Positions 5,891 through 29,344 of a stretch of DNA of 64,000 bases are shown piece by piece. Source of the stretch: Dictyostelium discoideum (taxonomy: Eukaryota); contig CM000153.2 of assembly GCA_000004695.1 (NCBI GenBank), positions 2,496,001-2,560,000 on the forward strand, written 5' to 3'. The position numbers and the translations under genes were made by a program. The notes below the pieces were generated by a model, which was given only the letters and a program-made list of their open reading frames with translations, made no database searches and was not told the DNA's origin. How positions within the stretch are numbered: the first letter of the stretch is position 1; each line of letters opens with the position of its first letter.

Positions 5891-8732
5891 TTATAAATTA
5901 TTATTAATTTCTTTTAATTTTTTCTCTAATAAAGTTTGAGTTTTACTTAATTTCACTCTTTGTCTGGTAATAAAGAAAGCTGAAACTATTAAAGCAGCAC
6001 CACCAATACCTACACCAATACCAACACCAATTTTCCAACCATTTTCAGATTTTTTATTATCAGTATTTCCATTTTGAGAACCGTCCTGTGAGGTACAACT
6101 ATTGATTGATGGTTCACGAACTACAGCAGTTGAATAAGCAGTTAAATCTAATTCAAAACTAGCACTTTGACAATCGTATGCGTTTACTTTAGTTACCATT
6201 TTATTGAATAAACCAGAAATACCAACTGAATTTGAAGTTACACCACCATTACCACTTTGACCATTTACAATTGCAACTTTTGGAAATCTACCAAAATATT
6301 CAACATTGTAAGTATTTAAAGTAAAGAAACGAGTATCCACTGATGAACCAGTTGGATTACCAAAAATAATTGGAAGATTTTGACATTCTTTTGGATATTG
6401 ATCAAATTCAAATAAAAATTGAGGATTATTAACAGTTAATGAACTTCCAGAATAATAATCTACTCTATATGTTAAACTATTCAATGGGAATGAAATAAAT
6501 TGATCACTTGAACTAATTTGATTTTGTCTAATTGTAACATTTATATTCTTTTGATTGGCTCCATACCATTGATATAAAGTTGTATATTGATCGATTGGAA
6601 TTGATTTCCATTGATCAATTAAAATTTCATTTTGATTTTCAATTATTGAAACTAAATATAATTTCATTGAAGATGTGGTTTTTGCATCATCATTTAATTG
6701 TGGTGTCATTGTTATAGTTGCATTATTTTCACCAAATTCAAATTTTGATACAATGGTAGATAGTGAACAATCTGCACCAGTGAAATTACTATTACAAATA
6801 CACATTCCAACATCACCATCACAATAACCATTACTACCACAATTATTTGGACAAAATGATGGATCCATCATTGTTAATAAATTTGAAATTGCACCATATG
6901 ATAATTTATTAACAGTGACTGAAACATCCAATTGACCAGCTGGTAAAATAAATGGTGTTTTTGGGAATTTACATGTTAAAATTGTATGATTTACTGATTG
7001 AACTGGACAATCGATAGAACCCTGTACCAATACTTGTACCATTGAAGTATCATTCCAAAAATTTGAACCAAAAATGGTAACTATTGATTCAAGTTTTGTT
7101 GGAATTAATTTAGTTGATGTACTTTTAATTAATGGTGGTGAATATAAGAATGTAAAAGCTTGATTTCTATTATCTTGACCACTGACACTAACAACAAATA
7201 TACCACCATCAATACCACTTGGTAAATCACATGTTAAAGTTTGATAAGCATTTATTACTTTTACATTTGTGCATTCAATTTCTGTGCCTTTTTTATTGAT
7301 TAATCTAACATAGTTATTTGAATCAGTGGTGGTTCTAGTTGCAATCCAAAAGTTTGTACCATAAATTGTAGCGGTACCACCAATTGTTGGCACAGGTGTA
7401 ATGGAAGCAATACTTGGTGCATTATATTTAAATGAAATTGAAGATGATGGTGCAGGAGTTACATCATTTAATACATTCAATGTTAAAGTACCTTGACCAT
7501 ATATGAATGGATTACTACATGATATTAAAGTGCCAAATTGTTGAACTTGACAATTCAATGGTACAGCACCATTTACATTCTCCATTGAAATACTAATGAA
7601 AGGAATGAATGCACCTAACATTGTACCTCTGATTTGAATACTAAAATCCAATGAACTAATTGGTGTTGTAATACTTGCAATTGTTGGTGAACAAGTTCCC
7701 ATTGGTCCAAATTTAGCCTGATCATATAAAATTCTAAAACTTGTTGATGTACTTAAGAAAACTGATTTTGGTAAACAATAAAATGATGATGGTAATTCAC
7801 CACCAGCAGCACCTCCGATATTAGTTGAAGTTATATCTAAAAAGTTTAAACCACCAGCTAAAATATCATTTGGCAATGCACCTGTGAATGCTGTATTTGA
7901 AATGAAAAGTTGAGTCAATTTAGAACGTGATCCAAATTCTGATGTAAATGAACCAATTAAATTTGGATTATTTTGTGAATACCAAATTCTTAAATTTGGT
8001 AAATAGAAAAACTCTGGATCTATAGTACCAATAATAGCTAAATTATTAAGTGTAACAGTTTGTAATGAATCCCAACTAACCTCTCCAATTCTTGGCATTG
8101 TCTTATTGGCTCCAAAATTTAATAAAAATAATTGAAGTGTTGTTAATGTTGATGGTAATTTATAAAATACACTAAAACTAATTGAATAACCATTACAATA
8201 TAATAAAAATGTTTGTAAACTTGTTGAATTTTTAAATAATGTTGATTGAAGTGATACTGAACTAATTGGTGCAACTTGTAATTGTAAATAACTTTTTTTT
8301 TTTAAAATAAAAAAAATAAAAAAAATTAGAAATATGAAATAAAAAATATATATATACCACTACTACTACTATTACTTACAATGTTAATAAATTTGGGGTA
8401 AAGATTTCAAATGGAAATCTTGCTTGTGTAGCTGCTGTATCATCGGAATGGTAATAACTATTTAGAATTAAAAAAAAAAAAAAAAAAAAAAAAAATATAT
8501 ATTAATAGATAAAATAAAAAATTAAAATAATAATTAAATAAATATAAAATTTACTTACAAATTTTGAAGAGAAGTTGGTAATAAAGGCATTGTTCCCACA
8601 ACTGGTTGAATATGTAAATATTTTAAAGATACCATTTTGGTCCAATCATTTAGTCCATTATCAGTGGTAATTTTAAAATTGTATGTTGAAATTGATTGAC
8701 TAGAAAAAAAGAAATTATTAGTAACAACGTTT

Positions 8733-8767
<35 letters not shown>

Positions 8768-9211
8768 CTCTTTAAATAATCTTACAATTGTTCTAAAACT
8801 GGATGTTGATAAATTGTAATAGGTACATTTTTAACATCAACATTATGTAAGTATAAAATTTTCAAAGCTGGAAATGCATCAAATACATTATTTAAACCAC
8901 AATCTGATACTGCATCAATATCACTTTTTATTTTTATTTTTATTTTTATTTTTATTTTTATTTTTATTTTTAATTTCATATGAAAAAAAGTTAGTATTTA
9001 TATTTTATTTTGATTATTATGTATAAAAAAATATTTACATTCTATTAATATCACCATTTTCGTCACATTTAATACTGTTTGCTAAAAAGATTGATGTGGA
9101 AGTTGCACCACATTCTAATGATGTCCATTGAAATCCACACTGACTTGAAATAGTATTCAAAGCATTAACTAATAATAATTATTTTTTTTTTTTTTTTTTT
9201 TTTGGCGTTAG

Positions 9212-9263
<52 letters not shown>

Positions 9264-9360
9264 TCTTACTTTGTTGGGTTGTAAATGTGGATGAAGCAAT
9301 TGATATAAAAAGTACCAATAATACATTTATCTTTAAAATAAAAGATGAGAGCTTTCTCAT
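5891..9360 (-). CDS. type-I membrane receptor-like protein: signal peptide, LRR N-cap, plant-type LRRs, IPT/TIG repeats, EGF-like module, TM, short basic tail (about 990 aa, 6 exons)
   Basis: Proposed join(9360..9270,9168..9039,8923..8786,8699..8559,8457..8380,8291..5891). Exon 1 is MRKLSSFILKINVLLVLFISIASSTFTTQQ, ending at donor GTAAGA. Exon 2 is the cysteine cap NALNTISSQCGFQWTSLECGATSTSIFLANSIKCDENGDINR. Exons 3-5 are LRR-like (DIDAVSDCGLNNVFDAFPALKILYLHNVDVKNVPITIYQHPVLEQ / QSISTYNFKITTDNGLNDWTKMVSLKYLHIQPVVGTMPLLPTSLQN / YYHSDDTAATQARFPFEIFTPNLLT), each flanked by GTAAGT/GTAAGA donors and (a/t)ag acceptors, with consistent phases. The large last exon continues with LRRs (LxxLxLxxNxLxGxIP-like: LRIWYSQNNPNLIGSFTSEFGSRSKLTQLFISNTAFTGALP). 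IPT/TIG repeats follow (PSIASITPVPTIGGTATIYGTNFW..., PTKLESIVTIFGSNFW...), then EGF (CPNNCGSNGYCDGDVGMCICNSNFTGADC), then TM IGVGIGVGIGGAALIVSAFFI, then RQRVKLSK...; stop at 5891. Confidence 0.7.
8925..8990. repeat. (TTTTTA)n hexanucleotide microsatellite inside intron 2 of the receptor gene
   Basis: Eight tandem tttttattttta... units. It generates the spurious (KI)n N-terminus of ORF 8782..8979. Confidence 0.9.
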
Positions 9361-10039
9361 TTTATTTATTTTTATTTTTATTTTTATTTATTTTATTTGT
9401 ATTTATTTTTTTATTTTTTTTTTTTTTATTTGGTTGTTAATGGATCAAAAAAAAATAAAAATAAAAAAATAAAAATAAAAATATAAAATAAAATTTCGAC
9501 ACCAAAAAAAATCTGCAAAACATTTTAAAAAAAAAAAGAAAAAAAAAAAGATATTTATAATTTCCAAATTAGTAACCATTGAAAAAAAAAATCTTTTTAT
9601 TATTTTTATAATACCTGGTTTTTTAAAAAATATGTGAAGGTTATATTGCCGAAAAAAATCTTTTTTTTTTTTTTGCTAAATTTTATTTTTGGTGGTTGAT
9701 TACTTTTTTTTTTTTTATTATTATAATGGTTTTCATCATGTGATTGCGCAATATTAAATCAACAAAAATGAATAAAAAAAAAAAATTAAAAAAATAAATT
9801 CTCGAAAATTAATACTTTTTTTTTTTTCTCTTTTACTCATCCTTTCACCAAAGAAAGATTGATGATTTTTGAAAAAAAAAAAAAAATAAATGAAATAAAA
9901 TAAAATAATTGAGACATTTATTTTTTTTTTTTTAGATTTTTTAAACCAGTTTTGTTCTATTTTATTCTTTTTTTTATTTTTGGTTTTGGTGTTGCCTTAT
10001 TTTTTTATATTTATTTATTTATTTTAATTTAATTTAATT

Positions 10040-24966: not shown

Positions 24967-26046
24967 TTATTGTGAAATTTCAATTGTTGGAGTTGGATTA
25001 CTTGGTAATAATTGTTTTTTTTCATTTTTAGGGTTACTACTACTACTTGCAACATTATAATCATCAGCATCTTCATCATTTCCTTCATTATCCTCATCTT
25101 CGTCATCCTCTTCATCACGATTATTATTACCAAAGAATCGGTTTAAGAAATGACCATGGTTATGATTATATTTTGGACGGAATAAAAACAATAATAAAAT
25201 GAAAAATATTGTATTAATTAATAGATTCAATATGGTTACAACTCTATACTTTATATATGGATCAATGAAATGAGCAACAATGATTACAATTGGATGCAAA
25301 AGGAACCAATTTAGGAATACAACAGTGAAAATGAACATCAACTTCTTTTTAGAACCATCAATTTCAATACGATAATATAAATGATTACTAAATAAAAAGA
25401 ATCCAACTATTACACCATACAATGAGACCAAAATGTATCCTGGTGTTGTATCTAAAAAATAGCTATAATTATTACTATTATTATTATTATTGTTTGCATT
25501 AAATTCAACATCAAAAACAAACATTATATAAATTGTCCAACTTAAACCAATCATTGATAACGTTATTAAATAGTTTAAAATTCTTTGGAAAACATTTACA
25601 CCATATTGGGTACTATTTGTCCATCCTTGTCCAATTATTAATAATAATAATAAAAATAATCCATTTCCTAAAATATAAAATACTATTTTTTTCAATTAAT
25701 TTAGAATTAATTTTTTTTTTTTTTTATTATTTTTTTTTTTTTAAAATACTAAAAACATACAATTTCCAAATAATTCAACATATGGAATTTCTTTTGAAAA
25801 ATGAATTATACTTAACCAATTTGTTAAAAATAATATTTGACTTATGATGAAAATTAATAAAACTCCTGAAAAATATTCTAGGATTTGACATCGAATTCCA
25901 TTACTCCATCTTGAAATTATATAATAAAGTGATACACCAAAAAGTCCAACAAAAACACATAAAAATATTAATTGAACTCTTGGTATTACATTTTCATCAC
26001 TATTAACATCATTTAATTCACTACTATTAAAAAATTCCTCTATCAT
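24967..26046 (-). CDS. 7-TM membrane protein, GPR180/TMEM145-like (GpcrRhopsn4-type) family member lacking the N-terminal ectodomain; 2 exons
   Basis: join(26046..25761,25682..24967). MIEEFFNSSELN...IPYVELFGN | donor GTATGT, acceptor aaatag | (L)FYILGNGLFLLLLLIIGQGWTNSTQYGVN... Multiple hydrophobic helices; acidic C-terminal tail (DEEDDEDEDNEGNDEDADD). Paralogous to 27362..28794 with the same intron position and phase. Confidence 0.6.
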
Positions 26047-26601
26047 TTATTTTCAATTTTATTATTATTTATTTTTTTAATTATTAAATTTTTTTTTTTA
26101 TTTTTTTTATTTATTTTTCTACAATAAAAATTAATTAAACTGCTTTTTAAAAAAATAAAAAAATAAACAAATAAATTTTAATAAATGATTTTATTATTTT
26201 TATTATTTTCTTTAAAAAAAAAAAAAAAAAAAAAAAATATGGTAATTTTATTTTATTTTTTATAATTTTTATTTTATAATTTTTATGGTTAAATAATATT
26301 AATGATAGTAGTAAAAAAAAAATTATGAAAGAAATGTTGATAGAATTTTATTACTAATGATTATTAATGCTACATTGATTTTTAGTGGGTAATAGTATGT
26401 TTAGATATGTGTGTTAAAAAAAAAAAAAAAAAATTATTCATTTTTTATATTTTTTATTTTTTTTTAAACTTTTTAATGCAAATATTAAAAAATTATAATT
26501 AAATTATTTTTAATAGAAATCTGATTGTTTTTAAAATTTATTTAATTTCATTAAGGTACTAGTTAATAAAAATATTACTTTAGTAATTATTATTAAATCT
26601 C

Positions 26602-26632
<31 letters not shown>

Positions 26633-27361
26633 TCTCAATAAATTTACGCATAATAAATACACAACAAAATATGTTTACTATAAGTTCATTTTTATTTTAT
26701 TTTTTTAATTTTTATTATTTATTTATTTATTTTTTTTATTATTAATTTTTTTAATTTATTTTTTTTATTTTTTTTTTATTTATTTTTTTTTTTATTTTTT
26801 TTTTTTTATAAATCTTATTCATGTAAATGATTAAAAAGGTTAAAATCATTGAAATTAAAAAATATATATGGAGAACACAAAGTGGTTGGTAGCATGGGGG
26901 ATTTTCTATTTTGAGAAAGATGAATTTTTTTTTTTTTTTATTGTGTGTGGGTGTATTTGTTTATTTTTTATTTAAAAATATTATTTTTTTCATTTTTATT
27001 TCCCACATTGGGAAGGTGTTACTTTTGGAAATCATAAAAAATATATAAAAAAAAAATAAATAAAAATACAAAAAAATAAATATTGAAAAAAATAATTTAT
27101 CCACCTCCCAATTCAAGGTAAAGAGTGCTAAAGTGTGTTTTTAAGTGTGTATTTGTTTTGATAATTATTTTTTTTTTTTTTTTTTTAATTATTTATTATT
27201 TATTATTTTTTTAAAAAATTGAATCAAATTGAAAAAAAATCTCTATATAAAGCTAAAATTTTTTTTTTTAATCATTATTCACATCCTATTATAAATACAA
27301 TAAAAACAATAATTACAAAAAAAATTGTCAAATAATTAAAAAAAAAAAAACAAAAAAAAAA

Positions 27362-28794
27362 ATGAATCATTTAAAAATATTTTTATTAGTCTGTTTAACA
27401 ATTTTAGTTTCCACGGTTGGTTCTATGAGGCTAAGCGGTGAAATCTCTTCCAAAGGTACCTTTACTCAATATATTGGTAAATTCTGTTACAATGATAATG
27501 GTGGTAATATTATAGTGGATCTTAACTGGGATCATTATAATATCGATACTGCAAAATTATTATTATTCTCTGATTCAATTGAAAATGTTTTAGAAAAAGT
27601 AGAGTCTTTATCATGTCAAAATACAGTATGTTTTTATAAATATTATTATTATTATTATTTTTTTTTTTAAATATTAATTTTTTTTTTTTTTTTTTTTTTT
27701 AATAAATAAATAAATATAAAAAAAGGTAACACCAAGTTATGTGTTTAATAAATACTCTAATCTTAGTAAAATCTATGAAGTAAAAGGACAACGTGATAGA
27801 TATTGGTATTTGGTTATTCAAAATTGTGAAAAGTTTCCAAGTAATTTAAACTATGATATCAGTCTCTTAAATGATGGTGATTCATTTGATAAATTTCTCT
27901 CAGCTGATCATCAATCTGTACCACAAGCTCATATTTTTTACTTTTTATTCGGTATGGTATTAATTATGGTTTCAATTGTATGGATTGGTCAATACTTTAG
28001 AAGAAATAAATTAAATGGTTGGGTAATTGAATGTTTAATTTTGATAATGATTCTATCATTAATGTCTATATTTTTATATACATTAAATTGGATTTATATA
28101 ATTTATAATTTACCACTTGGTAAAAATATTTTTGAAATTGCAAATTGTAAGTAATAATAAAATATATATAAATTTAAAAATTATTAACAATATTTTTTTT
28201 TTTTTTTTTTTTTTTAAAATTTTATTTTTATTAGGGGTTTATGTTTTAGCAAAGAATTTATTTTTCTTATTGTTAATTTATGCTGGTCAAGGTTGGACAA
28301 CATCAATTTATTCTAAGTCAAAATTAAGAAATTGTATCAATATATTCTTAATTGTATTTAATATTTCATTGGGATGGTCATTAAGTTATATTTATGATTA
28401 TTCGAAACCAGATATTAGACCATACAATTATTATTTAGATTGTTTACCTGGATACTTTTCTTATGTTGCATACGGCTTATTAACGGTCTATTTTATTTAT
28501 TGCAATATAATTTCCTATAGATCATTAAATGATGCTGAGCCGGCTAGAAAAACATTTTTAAAAATTTTCACATTGGTTTTCTCAATATATATGTTGAGTC
28601 CGATTTTGGTTGGTATCATCTCCCATTTCCTTGTGGATTATATGAAATTCAAAGTTTCAACTATAATGAATCACACTTTGGATTTCATATTTTACATTAC
28701 TCTAATGGTGTTCTATAGGCCTACAGCTGGAAATATTTTAGTAACAAAATTAGTAAACCCTTATAATATTGAATTAAGAGAAATTAAATATTAA
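27362..28794 (+). CDS. 7-TM receptor-like protein with signal peptide and about 150-aa extracellular N-domain, GPR180/TMEM145-like family; 3 exons
   Basis: join(27362..27625,27726..28146,28235..28794). Signal peptide MNHLKIFLLVCLTILVSTVGS; ectodomain with Cys (CYNDNGG...SLSCQNT | VTPSYVFNKYSNLSKIYEVKGQRDRYWYLVIQNCEKF...). TM core ...NIFEIAN | (W)VYVLAKNLFFLLLIYAGQGWTTSIYSK...FYRPTAGN. The family assignment is tentative and from memory. Paralogy to the minus-strand gene is directly visible (LLLIYAGQGWTTS vs LLLLIIGQGWTNS; FYRPTAGN vs LFRPKYNH). Confidence 0.65.
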
Positions 28795-29344
28795 TTAAAT
28801 TTCAAAAAAAATCGATTTTTTTTGAAATTTAATTAATATTTAATTTCTCCAGACCTTTAATTTTTAATAAATAAATAATAATTTAAATGTTTTTTTCTTT
28901 ATACTAAAATAATTTTTAATATTTTTTAATTTTTTTTTTATTTATCTTTATTTTTTTTTTTATTATAAAAAAATGGTTATTAATAATTTTTATATTTTAA
29001 CTTTTTGCAAATATAAAAAAAAAAAAAAAAAAAAAATGGTTATTAATAGTTTTTATATTTTAACTTTTTACAAAAAAAAAATAAAAAAAAAATTATTCAA
29101 ATGAGGTAAAACACCAGTGTTAATATATTTATTTTTTTAAAAAAATAATAATAAAAAATATTAAAAAAATCAACGCGAAAATTGGTGTGAATTTAATCAC
29201 AAAAAAAAAAAAAAAACAAAATAAATAAAAAATAAAAAATAAAAAAAAAAAAAAAAAAAAAAAAAGAAAAAATTTTGAAAATTTTTTCATTTTTTTTTTT
29301 TTTTTTTTTTTTTTTTTGTTTCATAAACATAAATACATAATAAA

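Follow-up and report, generated by a model that had tools for sequence, protein, structure and literature searches.

A GOLD-less member of the GPR180/TMEM145 transmembrane family beside a GOLD-bearing relative in Dictyostelium discoideum

Introduction

The GOST proteins, among them TMEM87A/B, GPR107/108, GPR180, TMEM145 and Wntless, are poorly understood. The animal members localise to the Golgi and endocytic vesicles and are thought to chaperone membrane-associated cargo (PMC11605061, PMC12716839), and for none of the GOST proteins is there evidence of signalling through G proteins (PMC11605061). A GOLD domain has been described in all of them and is generally conserved across eukaryotes (PMC11605061, PMC12716839). 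Here, we analyse two divergent neighbouring genes of this kind in a 64-kb stretch of Dictyostelium discoideum AX4 DNA (the window; contig CM000153.2, positions 2,496,001 to 2,560,000): DDB_G0284819 on the minus strand and DDB_G0284821 on the plus strand, referred to below as the minus gene and the plus gene. Both encode seven-transmembrane (7TM) proteins of the GPR180/TMEM145 branch, and the minus protein has no GOLD domain.

Annotation exists for the two genes, and they belong to a known family. The novelty would seem to lie in recognising, inside the GPR180/TMEM145 branch, a conserved lineage that lacks GOLD, and in tracing how it came about; beyond that, the locus holds an ordinary pair of annotated hypothetical genes. 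A GOLD-less paralogue lying next to a full-length one, in a haploid and genetically tractable organism, amounts to a natural experiment that could separate the roles of the 7TM core from those of the GOLD domain. An earlier reading made from the letters of the window alone (the sequence-only reading) had described the pair as the product of an inverted duplication with one shared promoter region, in which one copy had lost its ectodomain exons and might be subfunctionalised or decaying.

Results

The gene models were derived by three-frame translation and explicit splicing (Table 1). The minus gene extends from the ATG at 26046 to the stop at 24967 and encodes 333 residues in two exons, and the plus gene extends from the ATG at 27362 to the stop at 28794 and encodes 414 residues in three exons. 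By exact-sequence look-up, the translations are byte-identical to the AX4 proteins XP_638425.1 (DDB_G0284819, Q54P33) and XP_638426.1 (DDB_G0284821, Q54P32), respectively, so the coordinates that the sequence-only reading had assigned to both genes are exact. UniRef names both products "GPR180/TMEM145 transmembrane domain-containing protein". Each protein matches the full length (positions 1-224) of the Pfam model PF10192, the 7TM domain of GPR180/TMEM145, well beyond its gathering score of 23.7 bits: the plus protein with residues 160-385 (192.4 bits, 1.1e-56) and the minus protein with residues 28-259 (119.7 bits, 1.7e-34). Therefore, both belong to this family, as had been tentatively supposed. 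BLASTP aligns the two proteins to each other with 27% identity over 259 residues (E=7e-17), a significant similarity that bears out the claim of related 7TM cores, and the minus protein keeps the family core motifs GQGW, PGY, HF and FRP.

The intron after Asn228 of the plus protein and that after Asn95 of the minus protein occupy the same column of the multiple alignment, both in phase 1. The position of the minus intron and the coding sequence on its flanks are kept in D. citrinum, D. firmibasis, D. dimigraforme and D. purpureum. All dictyostelid family members that we spliced have this phase-1 intron, and the GOLD-bearing members additionally have a common phase-0 intron, three codons after a conserved Cys. 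The phase-1 intron therefore proves membership of the family and not one particular duplication; the sequence-only reading had placed it correctly, after the same Asn and in phase 1, but its use as proof of an inverted duplication does not hold.

We used a family profile of 417 positions that was built without the close relatives of the plus protein. The plus protein aligns to it over positions 1-399, whereas the minus proteins of AX4, D. firmibasis and D. purpureum align only from position 152, which is residue 13 in AX4. This start coincides with the juxtamembrane linker, "S-x-D-x-x-x-(I/V)-P", and only 12 residues precede the motif. In terms of the plus gene, exon 1 and the 5' third of exon 2 have been lost, and the break falls within the ancestral exon 2, where the GOLD domain gives way to the juxtamembrane linker, and not at an exon border. 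Thus, the ectodomain is indeed absent from the minus protein, but the loss is not one of whole exons, and the plus gene has one extra exon rather than the two that had been described, since its exon 2 runs from the middle of the GOLD domain into TM1-TM3 (TM, transmembrane helix). The minus protein is a GOST-derived 7TM protein that stands outside GOST in the strict sense because it has no GOLD domain.

The truncated gene has been retained under selection. The ratio of nonsynonymous to synonymous substitutions (dN/dS) was estimated by the Nei-Gojobori method among four species of the D. discoideum complex, with dS values of 0.4-0.85 that approach saturation for the most distant pairs. For the minus gene, dN/dS is 0.11-0.16 as a whole, 0.08-0.12 in the 7TM core and 0.23-0.38 in the tail, and for the plus gene 0.17-0.22 as a whole, 0.19-0.27 in the GOLD domain and 0.14-0.21 in the 7TM region. 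The minus gene is under strong purifying selection and is more constrained than the plus gene, and its open reading frame (ORF) and intron are intact in five species. The lower ratio in the truncated gene excludes the decay of one copy that the sequence-only reading had offered as an explanation.

The GOLD-less form is also old. An exhaustive phmmer search of 1.8 billion representatives showed that, among the relatives of the minus gene outside its own cluster with normal length (about 400 residues or more), the best-scoring ones carry an N-terminal region of ~140-170 residues, the best of them being D. purpureum DICPUDRAFT_157379 with 40% identity. By tblastx of D. purpureum loci against the window, we found an unnamed D. 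purpureum gene of 379 residues on GL871111 whose product has 67% identity with the minus protein in the core. The product begins with MIEYVP... and finishes with ...ISQ, and truncation point and phase-1 intron agree with those of the minus gene, which identifies this gene as its orthologue. Therefore, the GOLD-less form predates the split of D. discoideum and D. purpureum. For the plus gene, D. purpureum yielded no clear one-to-one orthologue.

The arrangement of the genes differs between these lineages. The D. purpureum orthologue sits between the GOLD-bearing DICPUDRAFT_80123 and a gene of 431 residues in a same-strand tandem array, whereas the head-to-head pair, flanked by a RalGAP gene and Ebp2, recurs in D. 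citrinum, D. firmibasis and D. dimigraforme, its spacer there being ~1.15 kb long. We built a neighbour-joining tree from 248 core columns with 500 bootstraps, reading support as unrooted splits, for group-4 Dictyostelium and single representatives of other dictyostelids; distance trees are weak at identities of 25-40%. The minus clade, including the D. purpureum gene, and the plus clade each receive 100% bootstrap support, and their grouping as exclusive sisters receives 2%. Both proteins are closer to GOLD-bearing genes of D. purpureum (33-40%) than to each other (27%). We consider it probable that the two genes are distant, anciently diverged paralogues in the dictyostelid GPR180/TMEM145 branch of the GOST family. 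The inverted duplication of the sequence-only reading is not supported by these relationships.

The plus protein is predicted to have the complete GOST architecture: after a signal-like segment comes a GOLD beta-sandwich, in which Cys85 and Cys122 are conserved, and a linker joins this to the 7TM region. Direct sequence search of the PDB with this protein alone returned chance matches only, and a family profile was required: a profile of 38 family members matches the solved GOLD domain of GPR180, 9FOW_A, at E=2.5e-4 over profile positions 24-148. Against the Pfam models, the N-terminus stays below threshold, with 23.8 bits for TMEM145_N (cut-off 28.1) and E=0.11 for GP180_GOLD. The AlphaFold2 model shows a signal-like helix, seven strands and one helix in residues 21-136, and then seven long helices, at a mean predicted local distance difference test score (pLDDT) of 56. 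When this model was compared with the PDB by Foldseek, the top four matches were all full-length human TMEM87A (E=3e-6 to 8e-5). It is the profile match, the predicted strands and helices and the TMEM87A matches that together argue for a complete GOST-type protein. In a hydropathy scan (19-residue window, threshold 1.6), only five of the seven TM helices of the plus protein pass. For both proteins, an N-terminus in the lumen and a C-terminus in the cytosol would follow from the family topology.

For the minus protein, the AlphaFold2 model has seven helices (pLDDT 48), and overlapping segments of the same scan merge into seven stretches. Its C-terminal tail is acidic, with 17 Asp or Glu against 7 Lys or Arg residues, carries a DDYNV motif and ends in IEISQ. 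Probably a gain of the minus gene, the tail with its DDYNV motif shows conservation across four species, and ISQ is likewise the end of the D. purpureum protein.

Between the two start codons, most of the spacer is unalignable in the four-species alignment, and four blocks, A, C, D and E (Table 1), account for 44 of the 46 invariant G/C positions. Blocks C, D and E correspond to the GC-rich islands that the sequence-only reading had pointed out. These islands are real: their GC content is 35-41%, a level of at least 40% being reached in only 1.6% of 40-nt windows across the AT-rich parts of the stretch, and their conservation extends to four species. Their position is closer to the plus gene. 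Block A, absent from the earlier list of islands, is not GC-rich; it contains ACCCACTAA on the minus strand and is conserved about as well as coding sequence in the four species. The blocks fall into a group 241-365 nt from the minus ATG and a group 235-486 nt from the plus ATG, and this split suggests two promoters, not one. The blocks are best read as cis-regulatory footprints in two gene-proximal groups, and most likely each gene has proximal promoter elements of its own, the minus gene in block A and the plus gene in blocks C-E. The islands thus survive as conserved elements, and the single shared bidirectional promoter that had been built upon them becomes the less likely reading.

Other identities of the blocks were considered. 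Each of the four is unique in the 64-kb window, and repeats or mobile-element pieces were rejected on this ground. Transfer RNA or other noncoding RNA was rejected for the islands and block A, as ARAGORN reported nothing in the window and Rfam (E of at most 1) gave three sub-threshold chance matches, all inside genes. For block A, RNAalifold returned -1.2 kcal/mol without covariation, and there was no Rfam match. Blocks D and E were not found at the D. purpureum loci, and the global alignment of the AX4 and D. purpureum upstream regions is no better than shuffled. These regions have only the short motif ACCCAC[TC]AA in common. In D. citrinum, D. dimigraforme and D. purpureum it occurs 282-344 nt upstream of the respective orthologue, in D. 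purpureum thus about as far from the gene as the block A motif is in AX4. GT-rich runs flank the conserved blocks (Table 1) and may, as a lead only, be akin to the G-box/CAE elements, to which the developmental factor GBF binds.

Table 1. Features of the two genes and their surroundings, in coordinates of the window
Feature	Position	Strand	Details or basis
Minus gene DDB_G0284819, exon 2 with stop codon; TM4-TM7 and C-terminal tail	24967..25682	-	XP_638425.1; PF10192 on residues 28-259
Coding region of the 71-residue C-terminal tail, residues 263-333 of the minus protein	24970..25182	-	Composition; four-species conservation
Minus gene intron, GTATGT...ATAG, phase 1 after Asn95	25683..25760	-	
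Minus gene exon 1; Met1, 12-residue N-terminus, juxtamembrane linker motif VNSDENVIP, TM1-TM3	25761..26046	-	Family profile; conserved MIE start
Divergent intergenic region, 1315 bp	26047..27361	.	12% GC (coding regions 23%); no ORF or GOLD remnant
Block A, 138 nt	26285..26422	.	Four-species alignment; invariant G/C span 26287-26411, 16 positions, 241-365 nt from minus ATG
GT-rich run ATGTGTG	26405-26416		Flanks conserved blocks
Block C, island 1	26815..26935	.	Core and invariant G/C span 26876-26915, 447-486 nt from plus ATG
GT-rich run GTGTGTGGGTGT	26939-26958		Flanks conserved blocks
Block D, island 2 (TTTTTTTCATTTTTATTTCCCACATTGGGAAGGTGTTA...)	26983..27035	.	Invariant G/C span 26991-27028, 334-371 nt from plus ATG
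Block E, island 3 (ATCCACCTCCCAATTCAAGG)	27096..27140	.	Invariant G/C span 27101-27127, 235-261 nt from plus ATG
GT-rich run AAGTGTGT...AAGTGTGT	27130-27155		Flanks conserved blocks
Plus gene DDB_G0284821, exon 1; hydrophobic N-terminal signal-like segment and first GOLD half through Cys85	27362..27625	+	Phase-0 intron ends the exon
Plus gene intron 1	27626-27725	+	
Plus gene exon 2; second GOLD half (to about 27911), linker, TM1-TM3	27726..28146	+	Ends at phase-1 intron after Asn228
Plus gene intron 2	28147-28234	+	
Plus gene exon 3 with stop codon; TM4-TM7 and short tail	28235..28794	+	
Perfect palindrome, 72 bp, two 36-nt arms, no spacer	28778..28849	.	Centre 28813/28814; checked by script

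A perfect 72-bp palindrome takes in the stop codon of the plus gene and the five codons before it. It is absent at the 3' ends of the plus orthologues of D. firmibasis and D. dimigraforme, which run several codons longer. These longer, palindrome-free orthologues suggest that the AX4-type C-terminus (...EIKY*) may have been created by the inverted duplication that makes up the palindrome.

Further observations concern the plus gene and its relatives. In a bisulfite-sequencing preprint (10.1101/166033), DDB_G0284821 is reported to contain, or to lie within 1 kb of, a robustly methylated cytosine, the exact positions not being tied to the gene, and it is labelled 'pheromone response'. A 2025 transcriptome study (PMC12503944) describes an unspecified Dictyostelium 'GPR180' gene as up in the dark, which is not tied to a gene identifier. 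The wild D. discoideum and cf. discoideum isolates ACTFIW, ACTFIR, ACTFIY and ACTFIZ hold extra plus-type paralogues (P0009-P0015, P0024 and P0136). These are 54-68% identical to the plus protein and nest in the D. discoideum part of the plus clade; several are truncated or fragmentary, and none of their 90% clusters includes an AX4 protein. This pattern suggests a copy-number-variable, partly decaying subfamily that differs between strains.

Two public records of orthologues are probably in error. The D. dimigraforme minus orthologue (P0004, 310 residues; L002 6001-7069) uses a wrong acceptor, and its model thereby drops 19 residues (the LFYILGNG... block) though the underlying sequence is intact. 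The D. citrinum plus orthologue (L003 3174-4853) is annotated with 504 residues, its (AAT)n-rich intron 2 having been read through. Two other dictyostelid data sets contain predicted fusions of family members with the gene next to them, an eIF4E-like gene in one case (P0026) and a mannosyltransferase gene in the other (P0029); these gene models are presumably artefacts that arise from adjacency. A few other short, Met-initiated relatives occur in metagenomic data (P0053 and P0089) and are possibly incomplete. Elsewhere in the window, positions 5900-15900 are collinear with D. purpureum GL871297 (L004 1-8950), a block comprising an eIF4E-family gene, an iron-sulfur (Fe-S) biogenesis gene, a TIG-domain gene and two small genes. 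In D. purpureum this block adjoins the GOLD-bearing DICPUDRAFT_157379, whereas AX4 has no family member on that side.

Discussion

A history that would fit the data begins with a 5'-truncating partial duplication inside a tandem array like that of D. purpureum. The head-to-head layout would have arisen later, by a small inversion in the ancestry of the D. discoideum complex, a later inversion being the simplest account of the divergent orientation. The recent local inverted duplication envisaged by the sequence-only reading, in which one copy lost its ectodomain exons and both are driven from a single shared bidirectional promoter, would explain why the genes are adjacent, divergent and homologous with an intron position in common, and why conserved GC-containing elements lie between them. 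It is nevertheless very unlikely, since the proteins share only 27% identity, their sister grouping has negligible bootstrap support, the intron is family-wide and the conserved blocks separate into a minus-proximal and a plus-proximal group. Moreover, the plus gene has its closest relatives among other plus-type genes (54-68% identity), and the minus clade holds the tandem-oriented orthologue of D. purpureum, which largely refutes a recent event. An annotation artefact, by which the minus gene would have unrecognised upstream exons for a signal peptide and a GOLD domain, could draw on candidate acceptor AG dinucleotides in the first 25 nt of the ORF (ATGATAG|AGG and AATAG|TAG). We regard it as extremely unlikely, because a tblastn comparison of five dictyostelid GOLD domains with upstream DNA from five species reached E=0.8 at best, and none of the minus-strand ORFs of at least 20 residues in 26047-27361 (six-frame list) resembles a GOLD domain, in agreement with the earlier statement that no ectodomain ORF exists in the intergenic 1.3 kb. 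The low intergenic GC content, compared with that of the coding regions, points the same way. The MIE start and the reading frame are kept through D. purpureum, with synonymous third-position changes starting right after the ATG, and the D. purpureum orthologue has no more than 608 bp upstream of it before the preceding gene's stop codon is reached.

That the minus gene is a decaying relic, a pseudogene in the making, is hardly conceivable: it does lack the family-defining domain, and its AlphaFold2 model is poor, but its ORF and intron are intact in five species, its core motifs are kept and its dN/dS is below that of its full-length neighbour. A functional pair, in which the GOLD-less protein would act as heteromer partner or dominant-negative 'decoy' and adjacency would be kept by co-regulation from the shared region, agrees with the head-to-head layout and an intergenic distance of ~1.15-1.3 kb in all four species of the D. 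discoideum complex, and with the position of the D. purpureum orthologue, likewise between family members. However, the partner differs between the lineages in orientation and subfamily, and oligomerisation is not an established property of GOST proteins (PMC11605061, PMC12716839), so that we consider such a pair unlikely. A related proposal goes further. DDB_G0284819 and its orthologues might be a long-conserved offshoot of GOST reduced to the transmembrane module, perhaps a partner or regulator of the neighbouring GOLD-bearing paralogues, whose adjacency in both D. discoideum and D. purpureum would reflect functional coupling, for example through a shared lipid or cargo cavity without a GOLD gate. 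We put this forward as quite an improbable extension.

Architecture and constraint are observed; the cellular role of both proteins we infer by analogy. Like GOST proteins, both would sit in Golgi or endosomal membranes. The plus protein would handle cargo or lipid in the secretory or endosomal system by means of its GOLD domain and transmembrane cavity, and the minus protein would supply the transmembrane module only. Acidic-cluster motifs can serve as sorting signals, and the acidic cluster of the minus tail is a possible cytosolic sorting signal, by which the tail would set the sorting of the protein.

Several points weigh against the reading of the pair as ancient paralogues, later inverted, with separate promoters and a role in trafficking. 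Both AlphaFold2 models are of low confidence (pLDDT 56 for the plus and 48 for the minus protein), and the TMEM87A matches of the minus model are not significant in Foldseek (E=0.09-0.3). The deep nodes of the neighbour-joining tree lack resolution (bootstraps 2-68%), so that naming an exact donor for the truncated copy, or a D. purpureum orthologue for the plus gene, would be tentative. The inversion and the two promoters are inferred from four close species and D. purpureum, and the trafficking role is drawn from analogy alone.

The closest described systems can be placed at increasing distance from the locus. The D. purpureum gene of 379 residues shares the start, truncation point, intron and end of the minus gene, but its tail is longer and Asn-rich compared with that of AX4, and it stands in an array of three genes on one strand of GL871111 in contrast to the head-to-head pair of AX4. 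The members of this array and DICPUDRAFT_157379 belong to the same family and have the phase-1 intron, together with the phase-0 intron where a GOLD domain is present. With the GPR180/TMEM145 branch of GOST (PF10192, PF21870 and PF21892), both proteins of the window have the whole 7TM model in common, although their identity to non-dictyostelid relatives is only ~20%, and the minus protein departs from it in having no GOLD domain and an acidic tail of ~70 residues. TMEM87A, the GOST archetype known from cryo-electron microscopy (8CTJ, 8HSI and 8HTT), is the top structural match of the minus 7TM model as well, there below significance. For the plus model it is the best structural match, with 416-433 aligned columns that take in GOLD domain and 7TM region alike, although the sequence identity is 13-14%, TMEM87A belongs to a different Pfam family (LUSTR), and the TM-scores, from low-confidence models, are only 0.4-0.5.

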